Below, piece by piece: positions 1-64,000 of a stretch of DNA of 64,000 bases (within the stretch, counting starts at the first letter, position 1; each line of letters begins with the position of its first letter). A program made the translations under genes and the position numbers. The notes under the pieces were generated by a model, which made no database searches, was not told where the DNA came from, and saw nothing but the letters and a program-made list of their open reading frames with translations. The stretch is from Eledone cirrhosa. Its lineage: Eukaryota. The stretch is from positions 1-64,000 of the forward strand of contig CAXHJY010001681.1 of the NCBI GenBank assembly GCA_964016885.1, written 5' to 3'.

Positions 1-4496
<4,496 letters not shown>

Positions 4497-5102
4497 GGTG
4501 GCTGCCAACTCGTTTTCGAGTACGGCCACTACTTTATATCCATGTAGGAGAACCCCTACCGATGCGCTGAACGAATGTGACTTTTTAGTCCAGCCAGCGA
4601 CTTGAAAACTCTGGTACAAAGACTACACTTGTGACCATTATTGACACATAGTGCAGGGCACATGGTACCATGTGATGACAAGTGCTGAGAGATCTCCAGA
4701 TATAAAGCAATGCCTGTGCTGTGAAGCTTTTATAGTGAGCAAAGGCACTGCACAAAGCCAGTCCCACTCTCTTAACCAAGATGATATTTACCAAAAAGAA
4801 GAACAAGTCAACATCATTGGATACCATCAGGGTTGCAGGTGTTATATCAGAGTTTTCCTTCTCCTAGAATTCTGCCTTGACAAAGGCTAAGGGGTCATCT
4901 CTCCCGGTGATTTTGGATGGCTATTGACTCTTAAGAGCTCCCTTGCCCTTTGACAGGTTTTGTTTTTAGTCCTGCAGGATGTCCAAAGTCACCCTCCTCA
5001 CCAAGAAACCTTGGTGGTGTTGCCAGTTTAGTCGCCAACGACCCGACCATGAGACAGGTTGTACTGGGATACATGTTACCAGTAGCACCAACTGGTGACC
5101 TG
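4497..5102 (-). mobile_element. Probable 5'-UTR fragment of a second RTE (BovB-like) LINE family embedded in (TA)n
   Basis: Higher-GC island flanked by (TA)n; minus strand has CTAGGAGAAGGAAAACTCTGA, a motif I recognise from invertebrate RTE 5' ends; no database check. Confidence 0.5.
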
Positions 5103-5978
<876 letters not shown>

Positions 5979-6280
5979 CATCATCATCATCATCATCACC
6001 GTTTTACGTCCGTTCTTCCACGCTAGCATGGGTTAGACGGGTTGTCCTGTTGTGGGCAGTGTCTGGTCGGCTGACCATGCCTTGCTCATACAGGAACTGA
6101 TCTGGCTTGATTTCTACAGCTGGATGCCCTTCCTAACACCAACCTCATTTACAGTGAGTGCTGGGTGCTTTTTCGTGGCGCCTACACGTCCACTTTACAG
6201 TGTGGGCTGGATGCTTTTTTGCCGTGGCACCTCCACGACCACCTTGCGGTGGGGGGGGGGGGGCATATTGTTTATATGCT

Positions 6281-9200
6281 TCAGCATGTACCCATGGGAG
6301 GTCGGGTACCCTGTATTACTGCGTGACGCCAGAAGTCACGGTCGTGTGTCATTGACTTTGAGAGGTGTAGTTGGGTAAGGTCGGCTTTTATCACCTCATC
6401 CCAAGTCATCTTGGGTCTCCCCACTCCGCGGTTTCCGTCAACTTCTAGTGCTCTGCACCTTTTTATGCAGCTGTCATCCTTCATACACATCACATGTCCA
6501 TACCAGCGTAACCGCCTCTCCTGCACGCAGCATTTGATTCCTCTTATGCTCAGTCTCTCTCTCAATTCATTTATGCTTTGTCGTTCACGTATATTACTGT
6601 TACACATCCATCGGAGCATGCAGGCTTCGTTTCTCTCTAATCTACGTAAGTCTTCCACCTTCAGCGCCCAGGTCTCACTACCATGCAACATCGCTGTTCG
6701 GATACACGCATCATACAGTCTGCCTTTCATTCTGAGGGAGAAGCCTTTTGCAGCTAGCAGTGGTAGTAGTTCCCTAAACTTCTTCCATCCCGTTCTTACC
6801 CTAGTTATTGTACTTTCTGAGCACCCACCTCCGTTGCTAATTCGGTCACCTAGGTAGCAGAAGCTGTCTACTGTTTCTACAGGGCCCACCCAGAGATTGG
6901 TGGTACTTGTTTCCTGTGGCTGTTTGCTTGCTGTTTCAGCACAGCTGCTGCATGTGAATCCTACATTCTTAATTAAGCTTCCTGAGATCCCGCTACATCT
7001 CTTGTGTACCCATTGTTTGCATTTGGGGCAAAGAATGGAGTTCCTACCTACACCTTTCCTACATACTGAGCAAGGCCATTTCCCTGAGGGGATCTGGGTT
7101 CTGTTTTCTCGTCTACTTATAAGGACCTTAGTCTTTGTCATGTTGACTTTGAGGCCCTTTCTCTCTAGTCCCTGCTTCCAGGTTTGGAATTTATTCTCTA
7201 GTTCTACCATAGATTCAGCTATGAGTGCGAGGTCATCAGCATACAGGAGTTCCCATGGGCATCCGGTCTTAAACTCCTCCGTTATTGCCTGCAGGACTAT
7301 GATGAACAGGAGAGGGCTAAGAACAGAGCCCTGGTGGACCCCAACCTGTACGCTAAATTCCTCGCTATACTCATTGCCAATCCTAACTTTGCTGACTGCT
7401 CCCCTATACATGGCTTGTACCGCTTTCACAAGCCATTCATCTACTCCTAGTTTTCCAAGAGCCCACCAGATTACTGCACGTGGAACTCTGTCAAAGGCTT
7501 TCTCAAGGTCGACAAATGCCAAGTAGAGTGGCTTACTTTTAGCTAGGTACTTTTCCTGTAATTGCCTCACAAGGAAGAGCGCATCAGTGGTGCCTTTCCC
7601 TGGTACAAACCCAAATTGCATCTCGTCTATATTCACCCGGTCCCTAATCAGCTGTGCTATAACTCTTTCTGTTACTTTCATGACCTGGTCCATCAACTTT
7701 ATACCTCTATAGTTTCCTCTATCTAGTGCATCGCCTTTACCTTTGTAGCAGTTGACAATGATGCTACTGCACCAATCTTTTGGTATGGCCCCCTCTAGTA
7801 TTACCTGGTTAACGATACGTGTGGTTATAGTGTGACCTACAGACCCAGATGCCTTCAGCATCTCGGCAGCTATACCCGATGGACCGGTTGCCTTCCCTAT
7901 CTTCATATCTCTGATTGCCTTACTTACTACGCTGCCGCTGACTTGTACTGCTGGTCCCTCTATAGGGTCTACGTGGGGTAGGGTCTCTTCTTCCCATGCA
8001 TTCTCCTCATTTAGTAATCTATCATAATGACTCTTCCATGCATCTTTCTTCTCAGCACTTGTGAGGGCAAGCTCACCTTTATCATTCCGGATACACTTCT
8101 CTCCAATGACATCACAACTATCTCTGACACACTGCCTCGCAATCTTGAATACCTCCTGTTTCTGGTCCTCACGTTGTAAAACATGCTTGAATTTTCTATC
8201 CTCTGCTTCCCTCCTAGCTAAGTATACTTGTCGCCTAGCTTCCCTCTTGGTCTCTATGTAATGTACCCTGCTCCCCCCGTTCTTCCATTCTTTCCATGCC
8301 TGTCTCTTGGCCTTGACTGCTTCATCTACCTTATTGTTCCACCACCAAGTCACTCTCCTCCTGCTTGAGGTCTTACTCCAGCCACAAACCTCATCCGTCG
8401 CCTCTAGTAAGTTATTTTTTAGGAACTCCCAGTTCTCTTCTACGTTAAATGTCTCTATCTGTTCTTCTTTACTGTCGTAGGCGTTGAGTAAAATATCTTT
8501 AAATCTGTTACTGGTTGAGGGGACTTTCAGCTTCCAGATCTTTCTTCTCCAGGTTGGCCTCTGTTTCAGGGCTCGTCTAGTTCTGACCGTGAGGTCGCTG
8601 ACAACTAAGCTATGTTGGGATGTACATTCCTCACTAGGGAAGGCTTTTGTGTTTACGACCGTCCATCTGTCACGTCCTCTGATGAGGATAAAATCTAACT
8701 GACTAGAGTGCTCCCCTGATCTATAGGTGATCAGGTGGTTGTCGGGTTTTTTAAAGTTTGTGTTACATATCGACATGTCATTGGCGTCGCAGAATTCTAG
8801 AAGTCTGAATCCTTCCTCATTCCTTGTGCCAACTCCATGGCCTCCATGTACTCTATTGAAGCCGTCGCAGTGTTTACCTACGTGTCCGTTAAAATCTCCT
8901 GCAATGATTAGGAAGTCCTTGTCGTCTGTTAGAGCAGTAGTGTGTATTAGGGACTCGTAAAACCTATCCTTAAGTTCGTCTGGCAGCCCCGATTGGGGTG
9001 CGTAAGCTGATATTATTGTGGTAATTGTCTTATTCAGGACTAGTCTGAGTTTAATGATTCTTGCATTTACCCTGTACACTGAGATTACTTTATCTACCCA
9101 CTTGTCAGCTAATAGTATACCTACACCACCCATCCCATCGTCATTTCCCACCCAGAAAAACTTGTAGCACTGGCTTTTTCCTACAAGGACTCTAGCAGAC

Positions 9201-34197: not shown

Positions 34198-34516
34198 CTG
34201 GAAAAACAGATATGTAAATGGGATTAGAACTGCATTATAAAAAATATATTTCTCATAATAATTATTATTATACATTTTGTTTCTAATGTGGAAGCCACAT
34301 TGCATTTAAACATTGAAAGTTTTCAAAAAATTGTCCTTTTTTATACAAATGGGAGTTCATATTGGTTATTTATTAATGATAATCCTGAAATAAATGTGGT
34401 TTTCTCTTTTGTAATTTAGACGCCTAGACGCTGGGGTTTTAAAAATCCATATTTTCTTTTTTTAAAATGAGATCCTTGGTATGGAATGATAATGTGCTAT
34501 GCAGAATATTTTATTA

Positions 34517-35129
34517 TGTTGCTAGACCCAGGGTTATTTACTTGAGTAAATGTCACCGGAATCTAACTACTAAATTTTATAAAGAAAAGGATAAGATATT
34601 TTTACATAACACCATGTCGAATGAGAGTTAATTCCCATTACAAAGGTAATGATAAAATGTAGGCAGTTTCTCGGAACGAGTATCAAATATAAGTCTTCAT
34701 TTTATTGTAGTTCCATGTTACAATTGTGGTTAGTAAATTTCTTCTACATATTGGTATAATCCAGATCCATGATAGGTAGTTAAAGAGAAGTTAACTTGCT
34801 TGTCTTCAGTGTTATCAAGCTCTCTCTCTTTTGGTGCCTTCCTTCGAATTGACAACACTTCTCTTTAACCACCTATCATAGATCTGGATTATACCAATAT
34901 GTAGAAGAAATTTACTAACCACAATTGTAACATGGAGCTACAATAAAATGAAGACATATTTGATACTCGTTCCGAGAAACTGCCTACGTTTTATCATTAC
35001 CTTTGTAATGGGAATTAACTCTCATTCGACATCGTGTTATGTAAAAATATCTTATCCTTTTCTTTATAAAATTTAGTAGTTAGATTCCGGTGACATTTAC
35101 TCAAGTAAATAACCCTGGGTCTAGCAACA
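34517..35129. repeat. Long inverted repeat built from two opposed partial LTR copies (arms 34517-34791 and 34857-35129)
   Basis: Arms are near-perfect reverse complements; both match 39661-39937. Confidence 0.97.
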
Positions 35130-35137
35130 CACTAAAA

Positions 35138-35155
35138 TGGTGACCCCGACGTGAT
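35138..35155 (+). other. Perfect 18-nt complement of the tRNA-Trp 3' end
   Basis: TGGTGACCCCGACGTGAT directly after the inverted LTR end. Confidence 0.92.
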
Positions 35156-35575
35156 ACCAACATAAAGACGAGTTGTTGGCGGGGAGGTTGGCGCGACAAT
35201 GAAGAGAAGGAGACCGACTCCGTGAACGCCATCTGGATGGTGTTTTTCGTGACACAGTTTAGCCACTTGACGAGTTAACGCGTCAATGGCTCTCAGTATA
35301 GAGTCCTCACAAGGTGAAACAGGCTGTGCTTCAAAAGTAGAAGAAGCAATGAGTGGATCTGCCGAAGTAGGCACATGAGAAAATTCCATTATACGATCCG
35401 CTAAGGCTGTAATTTGGTCCAGAGAACTGGTATCGACTATATTTGCTATTATGGTCTGCACATTTGTTGGCAAACGGGAGAAGAATAATTGTCTTACGAA
35501 AGAGTTGTCCTCTGCTGTTGAGTCGCTCAGTTCCCGGATGCACCGTAAAAACTGAGACGGGGGTTCTATCTCCCA
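35153..35575 (-). repeat. Duplicate of gag segment 38651-39073
   Basis: Highly similar by direct comparison. Confidence 0.95.
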
Positions 35576-38100
35576 CGATCAGATGCATCAACAGATAAGG
35601 AAAGTCTCGCATTTGCAACAGGATGGGCAAGGAAGGAAACTTTAGCTAGCTCAGACTTGACGGATTCAAAAGACTGCAATGCATCAGCAGAAAGTGAAAT
35701 TTTAGCATCTTTCTTTTTTTGCAGCCCTTAAAAACTGTGTCAAGGGGAACAACTTGTCCGCACAGTTAGGAATAAAGCGACGATAAAAGTTAATTAATCC
35801 CAAGAAATGGCGTAATTGTCTCAAGGATGTTGGTGGTGCTAATTGCTGAATCGCCTCTACTTTAGATGGCAAAGAACGAATGCCTTCTGAATCTATAAGG
35901 TGTCCAAGGAATTCCAGTGAATCTGTACCAAACACACATGTAGCTGGGTTGATTCTGATTTTGTACGATTGGAGACATTGAAATTACTGAGATAGATGTT
36001 GATGATGGTGTTCATCCGAATCACTGGCTATCAGGAGATCATCAATGTAAGCAAACACAAAATCCAATCCACGTGTGACTTCATCGATAAAACGCTGGAA
36101 CGTGCTAGAGGCATTCCACAAACCAAAAGGCATGGATAGAAATTCAAACGAACCAAAAGGGGTGGTCACAGCTGTGTTTGGTATGTCTTCCGGATGCATG
36201 GGTATTTGATGGTAAGCGCGTCATCATCATCATCATCATCATCACCGTTTTACGTCCGTTCTTCCACGCTAGCATGGGTTAGACGGGTTGTCCTGTTGTG
36301 GGCAGTGTCTGGTCGGCTGACCATGCCTTGCTCATACAGGAACTGATCTGGCTTGATTTCTACAGCTGGATGCCCTTCCTAACACCAACCTCATTTACAG
36401 TGAGTGCTGGGTGCTTTTTCGTGGCGCCTACACGTCCACTTTACAGTGTGGGCTGGGTGCTTTTTTGCCGTGGCACCTCCACGACCACCTTGCGGTGGGG
36501 GGGGGGGGGGGCATATTGTTTATATGCTTCAGCATGTACCCATGGGAGGTCGGGTACCCTGTATTACTGCGTGACGCCAGAAGTCACGGTCGTGTGTCAT
36601 TGACTTTGAGAGGTGTAGTTGGGTAAGGTCGGCTTTTATCACCTCATCCCAAGTCATCTTGGGTCTCCCCACTCCGCGGTTTCCATCAACTTCTAGTGCT
36701 CTGCACCTTTTTATGCAGCTGTCATCCTTCATACGCATCACATGTCCATACCAGCGTAACCGCCTCTCCTGCACGCAGCATTTGATTCCTCTTATGCTCA
36801 GTCTCTCTCTCAATTCATTTATGCTTTGTCGTTCACGTATATTACTGTTACACATCCATCGGAGCATGCAGGCTTCGTTTCTCTCTAATCTACGTAAGTC
36901 TTCCACCTTCAGCGCCCAGGTCTCACTACCATGCAACATCGCTGTTCGGATACACGCATCATACAGTCTGCCTTTCATTCTGAGGGAGAAGCCTTTTGCA
37001 GCTAGCAGTGGTAGTAGTTCCCTAAACTTCTTCCATCCCGTTCTTACCCTAGTTATTGTACTTTCTGAGCACCCACCTCCGTTGCTAATTCGGTCACCTA
37101 GGTAGCAGAAGCTGTCTACTGTTTCTACAGGGCCCTCCCAGAGATTGGTGGTACTTGTTTCCTGTGGCTGTTTGCTTGCTGTTTCAGCACAGCTGCTGCA
37201 TGTGAATCCTACATTCTTAATTAAGCTTCCTGAGATCCCGCTACATCTCTTGTGTACCCATTGTTTGCATTTGGGGCAAAGAATGGAGTTCCTACCTACA
37301 CCTTTCCTACATACTGAGCAAGGCCATTTCCCTGAGGGGATCTGGGTTCTGTTTTCTCGTCTACTTATAAGGACCTTAGTCTTTGTCATGTTGACTTTGA
37401 GGCCCTTTCTCTCTAGTCCCTGCTTCCAGGTTTGGAATTTATTCTCTAGTTCTACCATAGATTCAGCTATGAGTGCGAGGTCATCAGCATACAGGAGTTC
37501 CCATGGGCATCCGGTCTTAAACTCCTCCGTTATTGCCTGCAGGACTATGATGAACAGGAGAGGGCTAAGAACAGAGCCCTGGTGGACCCCAACCTGTACG
37601 CTAAATTCCTCGCTATACTCATTGCCAATCCTAACTTTGCTGACTGCTCCCCTATACATGGCTTGTACCGCTTTCACAAGCCATTCATCTACTCCTAGTT
37701 TTCTAAGAGCCCACCAGATTACTGCACGTGGAACTCTGTCAAAGGCTTTCTCAAGGTCGACAAAGATCTATTTTAGAAAATATCTTGCATCCATGCAGAG
37801 CGGATGCAAAATCCTGTAAATTTGGTAGAGGATAACGATCAGGTGTTGTGATAGCGTTAAGTCGTCTATAATCACCCACAGGTCTAAAATCCGCCTCACC
37901 CTTACGAGCTAAATGAAGCGGGGATGCTCATGGGCTGGTGGACGGTCGTATAAGACCAAGCTGAAGCATGTGATCGAACTCATCCCTGGCTTTTTTTAGC
38001 CTGTCTGGAGCCAGCCTACGTGGCCAAGAAAAAACAGGCGGAGAAGTTGTTGTAATAAAATGTTGAGTCGAGTGGATTACTTGGTTCGGTTTAAATGAAA
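35576..38100 (-). pseudogene. Gypsy pol (RT to start of RNase H), disrupted and split by an RTE insertion
   Basis: DFRPVGDYRRLN, FSKIDL|RAYHQIP, MPFGL, YIDDLL, FLGH, FLGLINFYRRFIP, SVDASD. Confidence 0.9.
36221..37764 (-). mobile_element. 5'-truncated RTE copy nearly identical to 5979-7516, inserted in Gypsy RT
   Basis: Only a handful of substitutions over ~1.5 kb; (CAT)n tail at 36221; open frame 36529-37677. Confidence 0.97.
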
Positions 38101-38106
38101 TGTCAG

Positions 38107-39347
38107 TTAACTCGAGAAATGAGGCAAGAAGAGAATGAAACTATTTCCAGAGGCAGCTATGAAACACACGGGACTTATGGCAGTAACAGTAGAACCACGA
38201 GCAGGCATAGATAAGGATGTGGTGCCATCCACAAGTTTCTGTCTCCTGACATCTACTAACAGTGAATAGTGGTATAAGAAATCCGCACCGAGAATAGGAT
38301 GGGGTAGGTCCGCTACAACGAAAATCCATTTGAAATCTCGACGCAAACCTAGGTCCAATGATAGAGATATTTGACCATAAGTTTTTATAGGAGACTGGTT
38401 TACTGCATACAAGGAAATACTGGAAAAATTTGGCTTGGTACAACTGAAACGAAGAGGCCAAATACTGCAACTAGATCCTGTGTAGACCATAAACGATTTG
38501 TTTGAAACTCGATCTTTGATGAAAAAGGCACGATAAGGAGAATTAATGGGGGAGAGGTCTGCCATGCCCAGACTCTCTAATTTTAGTTTTCCGAAGTCCC
38601 GAAAGAGCAGGGCTGAATACAATTATTTGCCTTTTTACGAAAACGCATGCGATACCAACATAAAGACGAGTTTTTGGTGGGGAGGTTGGCGCGACGATGA
38701 AGAGAAGGAGACCGACTCCGTGAACGCCATCTGGATGGTGTTCTTTCGTGACACAGTTTAGCCACTTGACGAGTAAACACGTCAATGGCTCTCAGTATAG
38801 AGTCCTCACGAGGTGAAACAGGCTGTGCTTCAAAAGTAGAAGAAGCAATGAGTGGATCTGCCGAAGTAGGCACACGAGAAAATTCCATTATGCGATCCGC
38901 TGAGGCTGTAATTTGGTCCAGAGAACTGGTGTTGACTATATTTGCCAGTATGGTCTGCACATTTGTTGGCAAACGGGAGAATAATAATTGTCTTATGAAA
39001 GAGTTGTCCTCTACTGTTGAGTCGCTCAGTTCCCAGATACGCCGTAAAAACTGAGATGGGGTTCTATCTCCCAGGTTTTCCTCCTCCAACAAGGAACAAA
39101 ATTTGCTCTCAGACTAACGGCTGTTCCGTCTGAGCACTTCTGCCTTAAGGGTCTCGTAAGTGACGCCTTGTGGGGGATCTGTGATGATATCTTTTACTGA
39201 TGTGGCGAGCGATGCAGGGATTCCGCTTATGAACACGTGTAACCTTTGTTGTGCCACTTGAACGCCATGGGCAACAAAATACGAATCTAGTGGTGCAAAC
39301 CACAACTTTGCATCACCTGAATACGTCGGTAGCGAAGAATTGCTCAT
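38107..39347 (-). pseudogene. Gypsy gag and aspartic protease (stop and frameshift damaged)
   Basis: LPTYSGDAKLWF, LGDRTPSQFLRR, LCWY...C...C knuckle remnant; protease MVYTGS (catalytic D appears mutated) and ILGADFL. Confidence 0.85.
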
Positions 39348-39634
39348 TATGAATGTAGTAGCCGCTGAGTGAAATGTTTTTTTAACTGCCGCACATGTGG
39401 TTTAACTTTCATGAATCAGCCAAAGACAACACATTTGAAAGAAAAAAATTAGTTGTATTTTCAAAATTATATGCACATGTGGTGGTAACATGAATAGTTG
39501 AAGTGATGTAACACGGAGGAAGCAAAATGGCGAATACAAAATGAAGGCTTTGTTGAAAACGAAGACACGAGGTGCAAACATTTTTTTTTTCTTATGCATA
39601 TCCGGAGATTACGATTCTTCGGTTGGCGTTTCTT

Positions 39635-39652
39635 TTTACGTTAGGGTCACCA
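39635..39652 (-). promoter_or_regulatory. Native primer-binding site (tRNA-Trp), 14/18 match
   Basis: TGGTGACCCTAACGTAAA adjacent to the LTR end. Confidence 0.85.
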
Positions 39653-39653
39653 T

Positions 39654-40103
39654 TTTAGTGTATTGCTAGACCCAGGGTTATTTACTCGAGTAAATGTCAC
39701 CGGAATCTAACTACTAAATTTTATAAAGAAAAGGATAAGATATTTTTACATAACACCATGTCAAATGAGAGTTAATTCCCATTACAAAGGTAATGATAAA
39801 ACGTAGGCAGAATCTCGGAACGAGTATCAAATATAAGTCTTCATTTTATTGTAGCTCCATGTTACAATTGTTGTTAGTAAATATTCTTCTACATATTGGT
39901 ATAATCCAGATCCATGATCGGTGGTTAGAAAGAAGTTAACCTGCTTGTCTTCAGTGTTGTCAATTCGAAGGAAGGCGCCAAAAGAGAGAAAGCTTGATTT
40001 GCGTTCCCTCTATTTATATCCTTTTACCGGAAGTTACAAAGAAGGTTCTAGAATTTCGATGGGAAGTAACGTTAGCTACTTCCCTTGTCTAGAGAGCGCT
40101 ACA
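39654..40103 (-). repeat. 5' LTR (~450 bp), TGTAG...CTAAA
   Basis: Starts TGTAGCG at 40103, followed by the PBS; matches both palindrome arms. Confidence 0.8.
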
Positions 40104-41279
40104 AAGCTATAATTGTAACAAGAATCACTGGGGAACTGGAGATACGGCAGAATGAACTGAAATAAGCTAGAGATAGTCTAGAAAGCAGTCTTTCTGGTGA
40201 CTCTGCATGAAGTTATGCATAAGACAAACAGAATATGATGACCTACTAATGTATAAGCACAAAGAGTCAATGAGTGGAGAGGCAGATGTATACAGAGGTG
40301 GAAAAATCTTTCAATGTTACCTTTATGATCCAACTAATGGATCATGGCACAATTGTAGTCAGCAAGAGTTTATAGTAACAATGATATTTAAATGAAATTG
40401 TTAAAGATGATCTTAAGGAAGACAAACAAGGACAAAGAACTCTTATTAACATCAAGAACTAAAGTTGCTTATCAGCAATATTCAATTTAACTTCATGGAA
40501 GGCGATGAAGATTACCACTTTAGCCAATACTTTAAAAAAAAAACATTTGTATAATGTGGAGATAGAATACGGTTTTAAAGGATTCAAAGCAAGGGATTTT
40601 CTTTGTATACCTCCAGGATAAACTAAACAGATGGCACAGAAGACATCAGAAATTGGCTAGAAGACAAAGAGAATGACCTTTGTCATAAAGCTAAATAGTA
40701 TGATAGATGAAGTTCCTGTTGCTGACAGGAGAAATAGTGAGGGTGATGAAAGTGGCAAACCATTGTCCAATAAACCAAAATTTTGTCATACAAGAATCTC
40801 TTGATGACATTTCATAAACTAACTTATGAAGAGAAACTGATATTCAACAATATTCTAAAAATCTTAGTGACTTAACAGAAGTCAGTATCTGGAAGCAGCA
40901 GCATCAGTATAAATAACTGAACCAATACATTCTTCAAATTAATTTGTCCTAACCCTTCTGCAGCTGCTAGTCACTTCAGACAGCTACAAGTGGGAGGCAA
41001 GGGACTGTGATGCACCATAGCTCTACAAACTCAAAATGACAAGTTAACACCTAAACCTCCAACATATAAAGCTCATCTGTCATTTATGACAGGTAAATGA
41101 AATTAACACTTTAAATTATCAGTCTTTTCATTTTTACATATTGTAATATTAAATAATTTTATAAAATATATATTTGTTTTATATAATTATATAATAGTTG
41201 CACTATTTTCTGCAATTATGTTACTGTTTATCATAGTGTACAGTGTATATATTTCCAATATCCTATCCACCAAAGACAA

Positions 41280-41780
41280 ACTAAATGAAAAAAGGCTACT
41301 GGCCCAAATAACATTCTTCTTGGGATACTTAAAGATGTCTTTTGGATGAAATTATCTTGAGGTTTACAAACAAGTTTCTTACAAACATGGAGAAACCTGA
41401 TCAGTGCTATGAGAGCAACCTCATATAGATTCCAAAATCAGGCAACCTCAGTGATCTGAGAAACTACAAAGAAACAGTGCTGCCTTCTTTAACTTTCAAA
41501 ATGACAAACAGAATGTTACTGAAACCATGTTCAACTTGTAATTGAATATCACCTGAGACCAAATCAAAATTACCTTTGTTGATTTTAGCAAAGTTTTTGA
41601 TCGAATTCACCAACACTCAAATACTCAAAATGTCAAAATCCTACTAACACACAGAATGCTTGAAGAACTGGTTTTAGCTATTGGAAAGACTTATGAAAAT
41701 ACAAGAATTTGTGTACTTTATGTGAACAGAAAATCTTAAGTTTCTTTCCCAGGGTGTGAGCACTTGTAAGAGGACACAAA
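41280..41780 (+). mobile_element. Degenerate RTE RT fragment
   Basis: TFVDFSKVFDRIH at ~41573-41611. Confidence 0.55.
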
Positions 41781-42909
41781 CAGCAGACAATTTTCTGAAC
41801 CTCTATATCTCTCACGACTACTGATTAATTTCCATTTATAAATGCTCCAAAACAAACAGTATATTAGCCACAGATAAATTCAATAAATGTAATGAAAAAA
41901 AAAAGGTACGAGTGTTCACGTGGGCCACATTAAAAAAAAGACTTACACCTTAAAAGTTTCAAATTGAACCACCAATTTTGCTGTTCTCCAGAAGAGGTCA
42001 AAATAACCTACTTAACAGGTTAACATTAGACAGGTTCAGCATTGATTAACAGGTGTTTCATAACAGATGTGTTCTAAGCAACTGGTTATGTAGGGCTGCT
42101 ATTTGATTACACACATGTAAGAAGAACACAAGAGAAGTCACAAACAATTCATTATTAGAAAGCACATGTTTAGCTTTGTCTATTACCAAAACAGCCCCCA
42201 TGCCAGCAAAGCACAAAATATCTAAATGTGTTACAGCATTATGGCTAGTAAATCAATCAATCACAATGGATACTAGCTCTAATGACAGTTTTACATATGC
42301 TTCACCGACACTGCATGATGATCTATAAATAAACAAAGGATTATATTTTGGTCAAAGAAAAATGTTCTAGTCTAGAGTGGCAGTAGTAGTAATAATAGAA
42401 ATGATGATAGTATGGTGCTATAACTTGCTCACATATCTGGAAGTGTGCTACTGCTACTGCTCATACAAACATCTGAGACTACATCAAAAGAAAAAAGATG
42501 TACTCTTCTTTTTGTCTCTTCTATCACTATAGTAATTGCTTCTTTTCCTCCGAGATAGCAAGCTGCCTACCATCTTCACCCAACTTACTTAAGTTCCATC
42601 TGAAGGTCAACCCCATGGATCTGGATAACATTGAGAGATGATGGGTTATGCCAACCTTAACCTGACTAAATAACAAAATCAAATAAATAAAAGTATTCTA
42701 TAGAATAAACGTTATCAAAACAAATCTCTATTCCTCTCTGTCCCACATACACACTAAGTAGTGCTGAATATAACATAGTGGCTATTGTTCAAGAGATAGT
42801 TGTCTAGAGAGCAACTATTTCTAATGTGACCATCATTTTTTAAAACATTAGGGTGTGATTTAAGGGAGATTTGGCAGACATTTCTAGCAGAATAACTGAC
42901 CATGTAGAG

Positions 42910-50109: not shown

Positions 50110-53100
50110 TTAAGGTAAACATTGATGCAATTCAATTCAAGCACTCAACGTACTTTTTCCACATAGGAGCGACGGAGTATATATCGAATAAGAAAAATCA
50201 AAGTAGTTTCAGATCTTAAAGTCCTTTAATGATAATGCTGTGATACATATTTCAATGACGACAGTGGCCACACGCTTCGGTGTACCCAGTCTCGTGACAT
50301 CATCAGACAGCTTCTTACATAAGAAGTTATGTTTCCAAGGCAATCCAAATTGAATCAACAGGGGAACGGACAAAGCATGTGCTCTTGAATCCTTCGTCCG
50401 TTCCCTTGTGAGGCCCAATTCACTCCAACTGGTCTGCGCAGGCGCAAGTCCGAAGGAAGTTGACCATCCACTACCCCAAAGTTCTACGAAACTCCCGTAG
50501 GCAGGTCCCCCTCTCAACCAAACGATGACCCCTATCAATTCAATTTGAATTGCCTCGAATATATACCCCGAATTAATAAATGAATATGAATCCGCGAATT
50601 ACCAAGCATCTATACAAAGCTTCAATTCAGAGACAGGAAGCATACACACTCCTCCACAAAAATTCACCGTTTCCCACGAGTGATGGCAAATGCCCAAAAC
50701 TCAGAGTTGGCACCATCAATGTAAGCACAATGAATGGAAGAGCAGGAGAAATTGTAGAGATGCTAGAGCGAAAGGAAATTGATGTGCCCGTGTGCAAGAG
50801 ACTAGATGGAGAGGAGAGTCCGCTATAGTCCTTGTAGGTAAAAGTCAGTGCTATAAATTTTTCTGGGTGGGAAATAACAACGGGATAGGTGGTGTAGGTA
50901 TACTATTAGCCGACGAATGGGTAGATAAGGTAATCTCAGTGAACAGGGTGAATACAAGAATCATTAAACTCAGACTAATCCTGAATAAAACAATTGCCAC
51001 AATAATATCAGCTCACACACCCCAATCGGGGTTGCCAAATGAACTTGAGGATAGATTTTACAAGTCCCTAACAAATGACAATGACTTACTAATCATTGCA
51101 GGAAATTTTAATGGACACGCTGGTAAACACCGGGATGGCTTCTATAGAGTCCACGGAGGACACAGATTTGACACAAGAAATGAAGAAGGCTTCAGGCTTC
51201 TAGAATTCTGCAATGCCAATGACATGTTGATATGTAACACAAACTTAAAAAAACCCGACAACCATCTGATCACCTATAGATAAGGAGAGCATTCTAGTCA
51301 GATAGCTTTTATCCTCATCAGAGGACACGATAGATGGACGGTTGTAAACACAAAAGCCTTCCCTGGTGAGGAATGTACCTCCCAACATGTGTACTTAGCA
51401 AGAAGGGAAGCGGAGGTTAGAAAATTCAAGCATGTTTTGCAACGTGAGGACCTGAAGCAGGAGGTGTTCAAAATTGTGAGGCATGTGTCAGAGAGAATTG
51501 TGATGTCATTGGAGAGAGGCGTATCTGGAATGATAAAGGTGAGCTTGCCCTCACAAGTGCTGAGAAGAAAGATGTGTAGAAGAGCAATTATGAAAGATTA
51601 CTAAATTAGGAGAATGCATGGGAAAAAGAGACCGTACCCCAAGTGGACTCTATAGATGGGCCAGCAGGTCAAGTGAGCTGCAGCATAGTAAGTAAGGCAA
51701 TCAAAGATATGAAGACTGGGAAGGCAACCGGTCCATCGGGTATAGCTGCCGAGATGCTGAAGGCATGGGTCGGTAGGTCATACCATAACCACACGTACTG
51801 TTAACTAGGTAATACTAGAGGGTGTCATACCAAAGGATTGGCGCAGCAGCATCATTGTCAACTGCTACAAGGGTAAAGGTGATGCACTAGATAGAGGAAA
51901 CTATAGAGGTATAAAGCTGATGGACCAGGGCATGAAAGTAATGGAAAGAGTTATAGCACAGTTGATTAGGGACTGGGTAAAACTAGATGAGATACAATTT
52001 GGGTTTGTGCCAGGAAAAGGCACCACTGACGCCCTCTTTCTTGTGAGGCAGTTACAGGAAAAGTACCTAGCTAAAATTAAGCTGCTCTAACTGGCATTCG
52101 TCGATCTGGAAAAAGCCTTCGGCAGAGTCCCCCATGCTATAATCTGGTGGGCTCTTAGAAAACTAGGAGTAGATGAATAGCTTGTGAAAGCTGTACAAGC
52201 CATGTATAGGGGAGAAGTCAGCAAAGTTAGGGTTAGCAATGACTATAGCAAGGAATTTAGCATACAGGTCGGTGTCCACCAGGGCTCTGTTCTTAGCCCT
52301 CTCCTGTTCATTACAGTTTTGCAAGCAATAACGGAGGAGTTTAAGATCGGATGCCCATAGGAACTCCTATATGTGGATGATCTCACACATAGCTGAAGCT
52401 ATGGTGGAACTAAAGAAGAAATTCCAAACATGGAAGCAGGGACTAGAAAGAAAGGGTCTCGAAGTCAACCTAACAAAGACTAAGGTCCTTGTAAGTAGAC
52501 GAGAAAACAGAACCCCTCTGGGAAATGGCCTTGCTCAGTATGTAGGAAAGATGTAGGTAGGAACTCCATTCTCTGCCCCAAATGCAAACAATGGGTACAT
52601 AAGAGATGTAGTGGGATCTCAGGAAGCTTAACTAAGAATGTAGGCTTCACATGTAGCAACTGTGCTGTGACAGCAAGCAGCAAACAGCCACAGGAAACAA
52701 GTACCACCAAACTCTGGGAAGACTCTGTAGAAACAGTAGACAGCTTCTGCTACCCAGGTGACTGAATTAGCAGCGGAGGTGGGTGTTCAGAAAGTACAAT
52801 AACTAGGGCAAGAACGGGATGGAAGAAGTTCAGGGAGCTACTGCCACTGCTAGCTGCAAAAGGCTTCTCCCTCAAAATGAAAGGCAGACTGTATGATGCT
52901 TATATATGAACAGCAATGTTACATGGTAGTGAGACCTGGGCTTGAGACTGGTTGCATTGGTATGGACATGTGATGCGTATGAAGGATGACAGCTGCATAA
53001 AAAGCTGCAGAGCACTAGAAGTCGATGGAAGCCGCGGAATGGGGAAACCCAAGAAGACCAGGGATGAGGTGATAAAAGCCGACCTTACCCAATTGCACCT

Positions 53101-53482
53101 CTCAAAGGTGATGACACATGACCATGACCTCTGGCGTCACACAGTAATACAGAAGACCTGACTTCCAATGGGTACAAGCCGAAGCTGAAGCATATAGACA
53201 GTACGCCCCAACCCCCTCACATTGCAAAGTGGTCGTGGAGGTGCCACATCAAAAAAGCACCCAGCCCACACTGTAAAGTGGACGTGTAGGCGCCACAGAA
53301 AAAAAGCACCCAGCACTCACTGTAAATGAGGTTCGTGTTAGGAAGGGCATCCAGCTGTAGAAATCAAGCCAGAATCAGTTCCCGTATGAGCAAGACAAGG
53401 TCGGCCGACCAGACACTGCCCACAACAGGACAACCCGTCTAACCCATGCTAGTGTGGAAGAAAGGACGTAAAATGATGATGA
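50110..53482 (+). mobile_element. Older near-full-length RTE copy (pseudogenised, internal deletions) with a different 5' region
   Basis: Collinear with the 1039-aa ORF from ~50580; stops, frameshifts, deletions at ~51388 and ~52942; 5' boundary uncertain. Confidence 0.9.
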
Positions 53483-53582
53483 CCCTTGCAAGCAGGGAAG
53501 AGTGGACGTAAAATGATGATGATGATGATGATGATAACCCATGCAAACATGTAATAGTGGACTTAAAAATGATGATGATGAG
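53483..53582 (+). repeat. Two further stacked RTE/SINE 3' termini, each with a (GAT)n tail
   Basis: CCCWTGCAA...GGACKTAAAA...(TGA)n repeated. Confidence 0.75.
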
Positions 53583-60666: not shown

Positions 60667-60942
60667 AACTAGACCTGAAAAATGCGCAAGCTCAAAAGAG
60701 TCACAGAATGTTATAATAAACCTTGAATGTTATAATAAACCTTGTTGCTCAAAAATATTGTAATCATTATCTATCGTACATTCTGTGGCATCCTTTATAT
60801 AAATATCACAATAAATACATCTAGAGTGTACGATAGATAATGATTACAATATTTTCGAGCAACAATTGTAGTCCCACACTTTTGAAGGTTTATTATAATA
60901 TTCTGTGGCTCTTTTGAGCTTGCGCATTTTACAGGTCTAGTT
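60667..60942. mobile_element. MITE / foldback element with long inverted arms
   Basis: 60667-60724 pairs with 60885-60942; 60742-60780 pairs with 60827-60865. Confidence 0.8.
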
Positions 60943-61178: not shown

Positions 61179-64000
61179 ATCATCACCATTTTACGTCCAT
61201 TCTTCCATGCTAGCATGGGTTAGATGGGTTGTCCAGTTGTGGGCAGTGCCAGGTCAGGTGACCTTGTCTTGCTCATACGGGAACTGATTTTGGCTTGATT
61301 TCTACAGCTGGATGCCCTTCCTAACACCAACATCATTTACAGTGAGTACTAGGTGCTTTTTCACTGTGGCACCTACACGACCACTTTACAGTGTGGGCTG
61401 GGTGTTTTTTTGTTGTGACACCTCCATGACCACTTTGCAGTGGGAGGGGGTGGGGGCATACTGTCTATATGCTCAGCTTCGACTTGTACACTTGGAAAGT
61501 CGGGTCTTCTGTATTACTGCATGATGCTAGAGGTCACGGTCCTGTGTCATCCCCTTTGAGAGGTGCAATTGGGCAAGGTCAGCTTTTATCACCTCATCCC
61601 AGGTCTTCTTGGGTCTCCCCACTCCAAGGCTTCCAACCGACTTTTAGTGTTCTGCACCTTTTTATGCAGCTGTCATCCTTCATATGCATCACATGTCCAT
61701 ACCAATGCAACCTCCTCTCCTGCACACAGCATTTGATTCCTCTTATGCTCAGTCTCTCTCTCAATTCGCTTATACTTTGCCATTCACATATATTACTATT
61801 ACACATCCATCAGAGCATGCAAGCTTCATTACATTCTAATCTATGCAAGTCTTCTACACACAACGCCCAGGTCTCACTACCATGCAACATTGATGTTCGT
61901 ATATACGCATCATACAGTCTGCCTTTCATTCTGAGGTAAAAGCCTTTTGCAGCTAGCAGTGGCTCCCTGAACTTCTTCCATTCCGTTCTTACAATGGTTA
62001 CTGTACTTTCAGAACACCCACCTCCGCTGCTAATTTGGTCACCTAGGTATCAGAAGCTGTCTACTGTTTCTAAAGCGCCCTCCCAGATTTTGGTAGTGCT
62101 TGTTTCCTGTGGCCATTTGCTGCTACATGTAAAGCCAACATTCTTAACTAAGCTTCCTGAGATCCCACTACATCTCTTGTGTACCCATAGTTTGTACTTG
62201 GGTCAGAGGATGGAATTCCTACCTACACCTTTCCTACATACTGAGAAAGGCCATTTCCTGAGGGGATCTGGGTTCTGTTTTCTCGTCTACTTACGAGGAC
62301 CTTAGTCTTTGTCAGGTTGACTTTGAGACCATTTCTTTCTAGTCCCTGCTTCTATGTTTGGAATATCTTCTTTAGTTCTACCATAGATTCTGCTGTAACT
62401 GTGAGATCATCCATACAGAAGCTCCCATAGGCATCCGGTCTCAAACTCCTGTTATAGCCTGAAATACTATAATAAACAGGAGAGGGCTAAGAACAGCCCT
62501 GGTGGACACCAACCTGTATGCTAAATTCCTCGCTATGGTCATTGTTATCCCTAACTGACTGCTCCTCACAAGCCATTCATCTACTCCTAGTTTTCTAAGA
62601 GCCCACCAGATTATAGCACGGGGGACTCTGTCGAAGGATTTTTCCAGATCAACAAATGCCAGGTAGAGCGGCTTACTTTTAGCTAGGTACTTTTCCTGTA
62701 ACTGCCTCACAAGGAAGAGAGCATCAGTGGTGTCTTTTCCTGGCACAAACCCAAACTGCATCTCATCTAGTTTTACCCGGTCCCTAATCAACTGTGCTAT
62801 AACTCTTTCCATTACTTTCATGACCTGGTCCATCAGCTTTATACCTCTATAGTTTCCTCTATCTAGTGCATCACCTTTACCCTTGTAGCAGTTGAGAATG
62901 ATGCTGCTGCACCAATACTTTGGTATGGCACCCTCTATTTTTACCTGGTTAACAGTACATGTGGTTATGGTGTGACCTACTGACCCAGATGCTTTCAGCA
63001 TCTCGGCAGCTATACCCGATGGACTGGTTGCCTTCCCAGTCTTCATATCATTAATTGCCTTACTTACAACGTATGCTGCTGACTTATATTGCTGGCCCCT
63101 CTATAGGGTCCACTTGGGGTAGAGTCTCTTTCTCCCATGCATTCTTCTCATTTAGTAATCTTTCATAATTGCTCTTCCACACATCTTTCTTCTTGGAACT
63201 TGTGAGTGCAAGCTCACCTTTATCATTCCGGACACATTTCTCTCCAATGACATCACAATTTTCTCTAACACACTGTCTCGCAATCCTGAACACCTCCTGC
63301 TTCTGGTCCCCACGCTGCAAAACATGCTTGAATTTTCTATCCTCCATTTCTAGCTTAGTATACTTGTCACCTAGCTTCCTTCCTGGTCTCTATGTAATGT
63401 ACCCTGCTTCTCCTGTTTTTCCATTCTTTCCATGCCTGTCTCTTAGCCTTAATTGCCTCATCTACCTTATTGTTCCACACCAAGCCACTCTTCTCCTCCC
63501 TGTGGTCTTGCTCCAACCACAAATCTCTTCTGCTGCCTTTAATAAGTTTTTTTTAGGAACTCCCAGTGCTCTTCTATATTGAATGTCTATCTGTTCTTTA
63601 TGTCATAGACATTGAGTAAGATATATTTAATTCTGTTACTGGCCGAGGGGTCTTTCTTCTCCAGGTTGTCTTCTGTTTTCAAGTAACTCTAGTTCTGACA
63701 ATGAGGTCGCTGACAACTAAGTTTTGTTGGGAGGTACATTCCTCACCAGGGAAGCCTTTTTTGTTTACAACCGTCCATCTATCTCATCCTCTGATAAGGA
63801 TAAAATCTATCTGACTAGAATGCTCCCCTGATCTATAGGTGATCAGATGGTTGTCGGGTTTTTTGAAGTTTGTGTTACATATCGACATGTCATTGGTGTC
63901 ATAGAATTCTAGAAGCCTGAAGCCTTCTTCATTTCTTGTGCCAAACCCGTAGCCTCCATGGACTCTATAGAAACCATCATGGTGTTTCCCAACGTGTTCA
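61179..64000 (-). mobile_element. Older degraded RTE copy, running off the window
   Basis: Collinear with the 1039-aa ORF from APE to 3' UTR; stops and frameshifts. Confidence 0.95.

Follow-up and report, generated by a model that had tools for sequence, protein, structure and literature searches.

A CsRn1-type Ty3/gypsy element of Eledone cirrhosa with a 3' half rebuilt probably by reverse transcription

Several ways in which the DNA of LTR elements is wrongly assembled have been described. HIV-1 minus-strand strong-stop DNA primes on itself in vitro, a dead-end reaction that is driven by the cTAR hairpin, suppressed by NC and, according to the relevant passages of PMC6088434, undetected in endogenous reactions. 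Asymmetric HIV-1 proviruses have an intact 5' LTR and a defective 3' LTR, and are proposed to form by way of the other genome's plus-strand strong-stop DNA (passages of PMC9278108). In the Triticeae, complex LTR insertions include chimeras that arise from template switching by reverse transcriptase (RT), as outlined in PMC1950507. In Ty3 particles, plus strands ending in tRNA sequence pile up as dead ends, and in both Ty3 and Ty1 the tRNA copy is reportedly not inherited (excerpts of PMC5371799); within the primer tRNA, m1A58 is the stop for reverse transcription (excerpt of PMC8599865). Members of the CsRn1 clade (CsRn1, PwRn1 and AgCR) have a tRNA-Trp primer-binding site (PBS), LTR ends of the form TGT...AAA or ATA, a CHCC gag motif (CX2HX9CX3C), the order gag-PR-RT-RH-IN and a 4-bp target-site duplication (TSD), according to passages of PMC2582038.

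The segment 34510-40103 on the minus strand of the window, which is the whole 64,000-nucleotide stretch of Eledone cirrhosa DNA that was analysed, is one CsRn1-type Ty3/gypsy element, primed by tRNA-Trp. Its 5' half is normal, whereas its 3' half has been rebuilt. In place of U3, PPT, integrase and most of RNase H, the 3' end holds U5-R in antisense and R-U5 in sense, then an 18-nt PBS and a duplicate of 423 nt of gag. The mirror repeat at the end of the element comprises 630 bases. The features, in window coordinates, are:

34510-34813, minus strand: left (short) arm, U5 and part of R, equal to 39654-39958, the outer 7 nt with 2 mismatches
34814-34818, no strand: turn, a TCAA microhomology with an A at 34814 that fits the terminal T.G wobble of a snap-back
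34814-35137, plus strand: right (long) arm, R-U5 from the equivalent of 39998 to the LTR end (35136) and 1 spacer nt
within 34814-35137, plus strand: extras of the right arm, namely a 35-nt loop, a 19-nt deletion and a 2-nt deletion
35138-35155, plus strand: tRNA-Trp-type 18-nt primer-binding sequence (the 18-mer), nt 12-18 overlapping the gag donor
35153-35575, minus strand: second copy, 423 nt long, of 38651-39073 in the 3' part of gag, with 21 differences, 10 of them CpG-type
35576-36220, minus strand: pol, C-terminal RT and the RNase H start (DAS motif), cut by the junction
36221-37764, minus strand: 5'-truncated RTE LINE, a later insertion inside RT, 99.5% identical to the copy at 5977-7516
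37765-38622, minus strand: pol, N-terminal RT and protease
38583-39401, minus strand: gag (Pfam DUF7041, E 2.3e-13)
39635-39652, minus strand: the element's own PBS, matching the 18-mer at 14 of 18 positions
39654-40103, minus strand: complete 5' LTR of 450 bp, TGTAG...CTAAA, with a TATA box from 40018 and AATAAA at 39850

The order and identity of these parts are read directly from the window, where self-BLAST recovers every piece named in the original prediction in the order claimed. The segment 34508-34818 is a same-strand copy of 39652-39963 (94.6%), 34814-35152 is an inverted copy of 39998-39638 (89.8%, with gaps of 19 and 2 nt), and 35153-35575 repeats 38651-39073 (94.8%), which is the antisense gag segment that had been proposed. 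Past 35575 the minus strand is pol, with the RNase H start LSVDASD and an RT with YIDD; the DAS motif lies directly after the junction, in agreement with the predicted entry into pol near the RNase H start. The RTE LINE splits RT between KIDL and RAY. Beyond it pol resumes, with RT back in register at 37765, and the N-terminus of RT is followed by protease, gag, PBS and the full 5' LTR.

The limits of the LTR and the size of the family come from reads and contigs of 4 runs, representing at most two samples, that were compared over 38550-40450. The loose ends of family reads (17 at 39654, 37 and 44 at 40103/40104) put the LTR limits at 39654 and 40103, so that 34510 and 35136 are LTR ends as predicted. 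Summed depth is mostly several hundred to 3100 over the element but about 15 in the single-copy flank, which puts the number of family copies in the tens to hundreds. Deletions within gag and within the 5' leader occur in other copies (38892 to 39397 and 39546 to 39633 are two of them), and deleted derivatives are thus common.

As far as its letters can be compared, the element matches the CsRn1 clade in its LTR ends, its tRNA-Trp PBS and its CHCC-spaced gag motif. The ends TGTAG...CTAAA have the clade's TGT...AAA form. Positions 35138-35149 fit the published 12-nt PBS consensus of the clade, while the element's own PBS matches its first 9 nt (consensus as given in the passages of PMC2582038). 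In the gag motif CX2HX9CX3C the Cys spacing is exact, but this copy has Arg in place of His; 12 of the 15 homologous loci listed have an intact motif. Gag, PR, RT and the RH start stand in clade order. Unlike the clade as it is presented in PMC2582038, the element is without integrase, PPT and 3' U3 and ends in an R-U5 palindrome, a PBS and a gag duplicate. The 4-bp TSD expected of the clade is also absent, a feature that concerns the insertion event and not the source family. A search for gag homologues gave one weak match, and the LTR has no close nucleotide relative among the 119 metagenome loci listed.

The likeness to the other described systems is partial. As in HIV-1 self-priming, a strong-stop 3' end would have folded back and extended on itself with no transfer; unlike that reaction, with its stable cTAR hairpin, the element offers a pairing of 4-5 nt and would have yielded a product that was rescued and became fixed in the germ line (comparison with the passages of PMC6088434). 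The intact 5' LTR and defective 3' LTR recall the asymmetric HIV-1 proviruses, some of which carry inversions, but those are somatic and not fixed, and no R-U5 palindrome followed by a PBS is described in the relevant passages of PMC9278108. In the Triticeae insertions two elements are fused at a shared LTR, and the outline in PMC1950507 describes neither a fold-back nor a jump at the PBS end.

All parts of the rearrangement are old and of a common age. The two arms differ from each other by 7 substitutions in 280 positions (2.5%) and by two deletions, a divergence that is not that of a read artefact, and they differ from the 5' LTR by 15/301 and 11/280 substitutions. Private events number 6 in the left arm, 4 in the right arm and 9 in the 5' LTR, which fits one age (p = 0.37). 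The right arm needs a template made up of a 5' LTR and PBS. It contains none of the 9 events private to the 5' LTR and so dates from insertion or shortly afterwards, and the duplication is unlikely to have happened once about 28% of the element's age had passed (p about 0.05). Five of the 10 columns specific to the 5' LTR appear among the 40 read rows listed, and there the reads side with the arms; at site 39941 the reads carry a third letter. The gag copies differ at 21 of 423 positions, and at 5 of the 12 displayed sites the duplicate and the resident gag agree against most reads, so that both come from one source. Conversion of an older resident copy by a younger cDNA was also considered and set aside, the asymmetry in private changes not being significant (9 vs 4, p = 0.27).

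These differences bear on two simpler explanations. A sequencing or assembly artefact, such as a fold-back read or a chimera, would be compatible with the reads to the extent that none of the three inner junctions is among the 5 joints listed from them, the contigs being short, so that the junctions are neither confirmed nor refuted. The differences between the arms and the CpG-type changes between the gag copies are, however, old genomic differences, and the 5' PBS region and right flank occur without any difference in sample S1 (which may be the assembly's own sample), leaving an artefact extremely improbable. The many copies of the family and the missing TSD would suit a pair of insertions from one subfamily, opposed or nested, that deletions or recombination fused at a later time. 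At least three further breaks would then have to hit the PBS and the vicinity of the promoter, the gag duplicate is antisense to the second LTR, and all parts have one age and one source; this history is very improbable.

The 18-mer was the centrepiece of the original prediction, which took it as exactly 18 nt copied from the tRNA primer. At 35138-35155 it is the sole match in the window at up to 3 mismatches (0.01 expected), and the element's own PBS indeed matches it at 14 positions, with mismatches at nt 10, 11, 16 and 18. Its last 3 nt are nevertheless identical to the gag donor, and nt 12-18 match the donor at 5 of 7 positions in the resident copy, or 6 of 7 with the majority-read letter at 38648. 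Because of this overlap the break may lie anywhere from nt 11 to nt 18, the length cannot be fixed at 18, and it is for nt 1-11 only that a PBS or tRNA source must apparently be invoked. The contrast between 14/18 and 18/18 is weak as an argument; the mismatches at nt 10-11 have the look of decayed CpG sites in the 5' copy, as had been suggested, and nt 16 and 18 may derive from the gag donor.

The 18-mer is also common. In a metagenome scan with its first 13 nt fixed, at least 119 loci were found; among the 119 matches listed, 15 have gag or protease similarity to the element, and the PBS of these has all 18 nt in 8 loci, 15 nt in one and 14 nt in 6. Two of the 15 (L141 and L152) are nearly identical around the PBS. 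Since 8 of these 15 listed relatives own the full 18-mer, and since its last 3-7 nt overlap gag, it is not diagnostic. Nucleotides 13-18 are presumably those of tRNA-Trp, and no tRNA gene was found within the window. Of 86 viral loci with the last 15 nt of the 18-mer, 9 have it in full; it also appears in the excerpts of two Rous sarcoma virus papers, and its reverse complement stands in a tRNA-fragment table (PMC12025293) with the isotype unnamed in the passage. At one metagenome locus (L158:222-239 onward) the 18-mer runs on past nt 18 as T-loop-like sequence; neither ARAGORN nor Rfam calls a tRNA in this stretch, which is possibly a tRNA fragment or a copy that read past the usual stop.

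The 18-mer thus does not prove tRNA copying, a question that sequence alone cannot settle. The remaining argument is positional: the sense arm breaks within an 8-nt window at the end of the PBS, where RT products end and where a process at the DNA level has no reason to break. Such a process, of the ODIRA, FoSTeS or MMBIR type and acting on a fresh or unintegrated copy, would have rebuilt the 3' half by three microhomology switches with the 5' LTR and PBS as template and no tRNA copied. There is short homology at every junction, the 18-mer may be an undecayed PBS, and replication makes inverted junctions at short interrupted repeats (passages of PMC10766183). Host-replication switching as treated in the passages of PMC10766183 and PMC8604942 also resembles the locus in its inverted junction and its loop inversion; it has no tie to primer or LTR ends, and is here both a rival origin and the proposed cause of the loop flip discussed below. 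An origin by DNA-level switching is distinctly unlikely: breaks inside the PBS and near the promoter would have no reason, the event would have to be very early given that the long arm shares 0/9 private 5'-LTR events, and an in-place rearrangement should keep a TSD, which is not there.

A reverse-transcription origin of the rebuilt 3' end remains the best reading, with a probability of roughly 0.75. It is preferred because the left end is the U5/primer junction and the returning arm ends in the PBS, and because the downstream parts run in the RNA-templated (minus) direction and the duplicate dates from about the time of insertion. The probabilities in this text, whether in figures or in words, are judgements and not computed values. 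The original prediction of a fold-back strong-stop accident is sustained in this general form; its central deletion, its proof from the 18-mer and the strong-stop part of its scheme are not.

The turn lies at the TCAA microhomology that had been proposed, with 4 bp and a wobble: the last bases of a minus strand that stops at 39998 can anneal to TCAA at 39960-39963, with a T.G wobble next to it at 39959. The long arm has 35 nt (39964-39998) that are missing from the short arm, slightly fewer than the 36 or so first noted. A simulated snap-back from 39998 followed by a flip of the loop gives the observed 32-nt centre except for one site private to the 5' LTR, and yields A at 34814, where a 3' end at 39997 yields G. 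This fit identifies the 35-nt asymmetry as a hairpin loop, so that the central deletion thought to be needed is superfluous, and a second primer, the other option offered, is a less probable alternative. The loop lies in the sense orientation, whereas a simple snap-back product would have it antisense; either a later flip between the 310-bp arms or a second primed strand is therefore required. A 19-nt deletion in the returning arm, about 45 nt from the centre, indicates that the centre was later remodelled. The priming hairpin is unstable (+1.9 kcal/mol for 4 pairs), and a 4-bp pairing is on offer in 4 of 1728 nearby end/site pairs.

Transcription is expected to start about 30 nt after the start of a TATA box. 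The TATA box of the element begins at 40018 and the turn comes 20 nt later, some 10 nt upstream of where the RNA would be expected to begin, so that the term strong-stop is unproven. A TATA motif is found in 2 of the 15 relatives among the matches listed, too rare to calibrate the spacing. A position upstream of the start, together with the second deletion of 19 nt near the centre, would be natural if minus-strand transfer had been normal, the fold-back had occurred in U3 and a TCAA-mediated deletion had later removed the centre, the turn being near TATA by chance. That deletion would leave G at 34814, however, and the observed A would need an extra point mutation, which makes a fold-back in U3 improbable.

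The orientation of the loop would arise directly, with no flip after insertion, if two minus-strand strong-stop DNAs in one particle had cross-primed through TCAA/TTGA, or if a second tRNA-primed strand had copied the hairpin. Particles hold two RNAs (passages of PMC6894440), and the minus strand from 35155 to 34510 reads exactly as primer end, long arm, wobble turn and short arm. This arrangement is unlikely; it needs a paused or trimmed second strand with its tRNA still attached and repair of the G.T pair towards A, and it too leaves the missing TSD unexplained.

A single snap-back in one faulty round of reverse transcription, with a later flip of the loop, is favoured tentatively, at a little short of even odds. 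The minus strand primed by tRNA-Trp would have run to the equivalent of 39998, where its 3' end would have skipped transfer to the 3' R and paired with TCAA 35 nt back by 4 pairs and the terminal T.G wobble. The strand would then have served as its own template, with synthesis passing back through U5 and on into the tRNA still joined to it, as far, probably, as the m1A58 stop. Freed by RNase H, the 3' end would have primed on gag RNA via a match of 5-7 nt, and 423 nt further on it would have switched to the RNase H start in pol RNA, the template probably being the second packaged molecule, and continued to the PBS. The intact 5' LTR would have come from normal plus-strand strong-stop DNA of the other genome. 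The DNA may have integrated abnormally, or the left junction may have been damaged later; a template switch or crossover between the 310-bp arms would subsequently have flipped the loop, and the young LINE would have inserted into RT later still.

Eleven of 2500 sites in the element match the 7 nt that would have primed on gag as well as or better than gag itself, of which the present copy matches 5 of 7. The switch from gag to pol probably involved some 3 nt of homology, a figure that is indirect because the donor's continuation is deleted. Besides the undiagnostic 18-mer, the unstable hairpin, the position of the turn and the remodelled centre, further points stand against the single snap-back: the loop flip is an extra, unobserved event, a clean product should integrate with a 4-bp TSD, which is not present, and in Ty3 and Ty1 the tRNA copy is reportedly not inherited. 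Inversion of a spacer and homogenisation of arms between inverted repeats are described, for short repeats in yeast, in passages of PMC8604942.

The flanks of the element read ATAT and AAGC; no TSD of 4 or 5 bp is found at up to one mismatch, and no larger duplication within 3 kb on each side. The TSDs of two opposed insertions, which the original prediction had named as evidence against itself, were not obtained, there being no TSD at all. The left arm has 2 mismatches in its outer 7 nt (P about 0.004 at the arm's rate), so that a clean integrase joint is improbable at the left junction. Uncoordinated retroviral integration leads to deletions or long duplications (passages of PMC2857682), and breakage beside the palindrome would be an alternative cause for the left junction. 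Every model leaves the missing TSD as its chief unexplained feature; the absence counts against an in-place rearrangement of a normal copy as well as against a tidy single event. AGAAT was rejected as a TSD, as it needs a right end at 40120 and the reads place the LTR start at 40103.

A heavily decayed LINE remnant occupies 40104-41800 and seems to be the target in which the element landed. The idea, formed by eye, that both flanks lie inside one old LINE is unsupported; when 66 full-length RTE proteins were compared by tblastn, the RT motif at 41572-41703 was the only region to score (E 0.004) and the junctions gave nothing, and a direct homologue search gave no match. Elsewhere in the window, a young RTE LINE on the minus strand (5977 to about 9800) has a long open endonuclease-RT frame, with a PHD-finger-like Pfam match on its RT protein, and has relatives of 84-90% at 51100-53500 and 61179-64000. 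The LINEs of the window presumably resemble cephalopod repeats. At 60667-60942 lies a MITE-like element whose inverted repeats are nested, with arms of about 50 bp in the outer pair and about 30-35 bp in the inner pair, and positions 1-6000 are a long, TA-rich block of simple repeats with a GC content of 9-20%.

Older retrovirus work on rearranged DNAs exists. In the literature searched, to which subscription papers were mostly external, no description was found of a genomic R-U5 palindrome with a PBS and a jump, and none of 27 selected PBS-bearing loci from other sources has an inverted repeat at the PBS; one of the loci (L099) has weak self-matches about 1 kb from its PBS. An amplified class of LTR-derived TIR or MITE elements would show these junctions in several copies; neither the 5 joints listed from the short contigs nor those 27 loci include such a case. 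The ingredients (self-priming in vitro, template-switch chimeras in plants, asymmetric proviruses) are known, and their combination in one genomic scar would appear to be a new variant. The rearrangement is real, dead and apparently single-copy, with no sign of function, and its value is therefore mechanistic.

The fullest statement of the mechanism, that a Ty3/gypsy RT self-primed minus-strand strong-stop DNA in vivo on 4-5 bases, read the tRNA to the m1A58 stop and was rescued by two jumps onto genomic RNA to give a product fixed in the germ line, is held more doubtfully than the single snap-back itself. If it is true, strong-stop DNA does prime on itself in living cells, and the product can be rescued and integrated. 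Such scars would then report the replication intermediates of elements that nobody can assay, and the breakpoints of this one would show, for an unstudied invertebrate clade, where the RNA begins and where copying of the primer stops. A search of the whole genome should then reveal similar scars, and the loop should be polymorphic in orientation.
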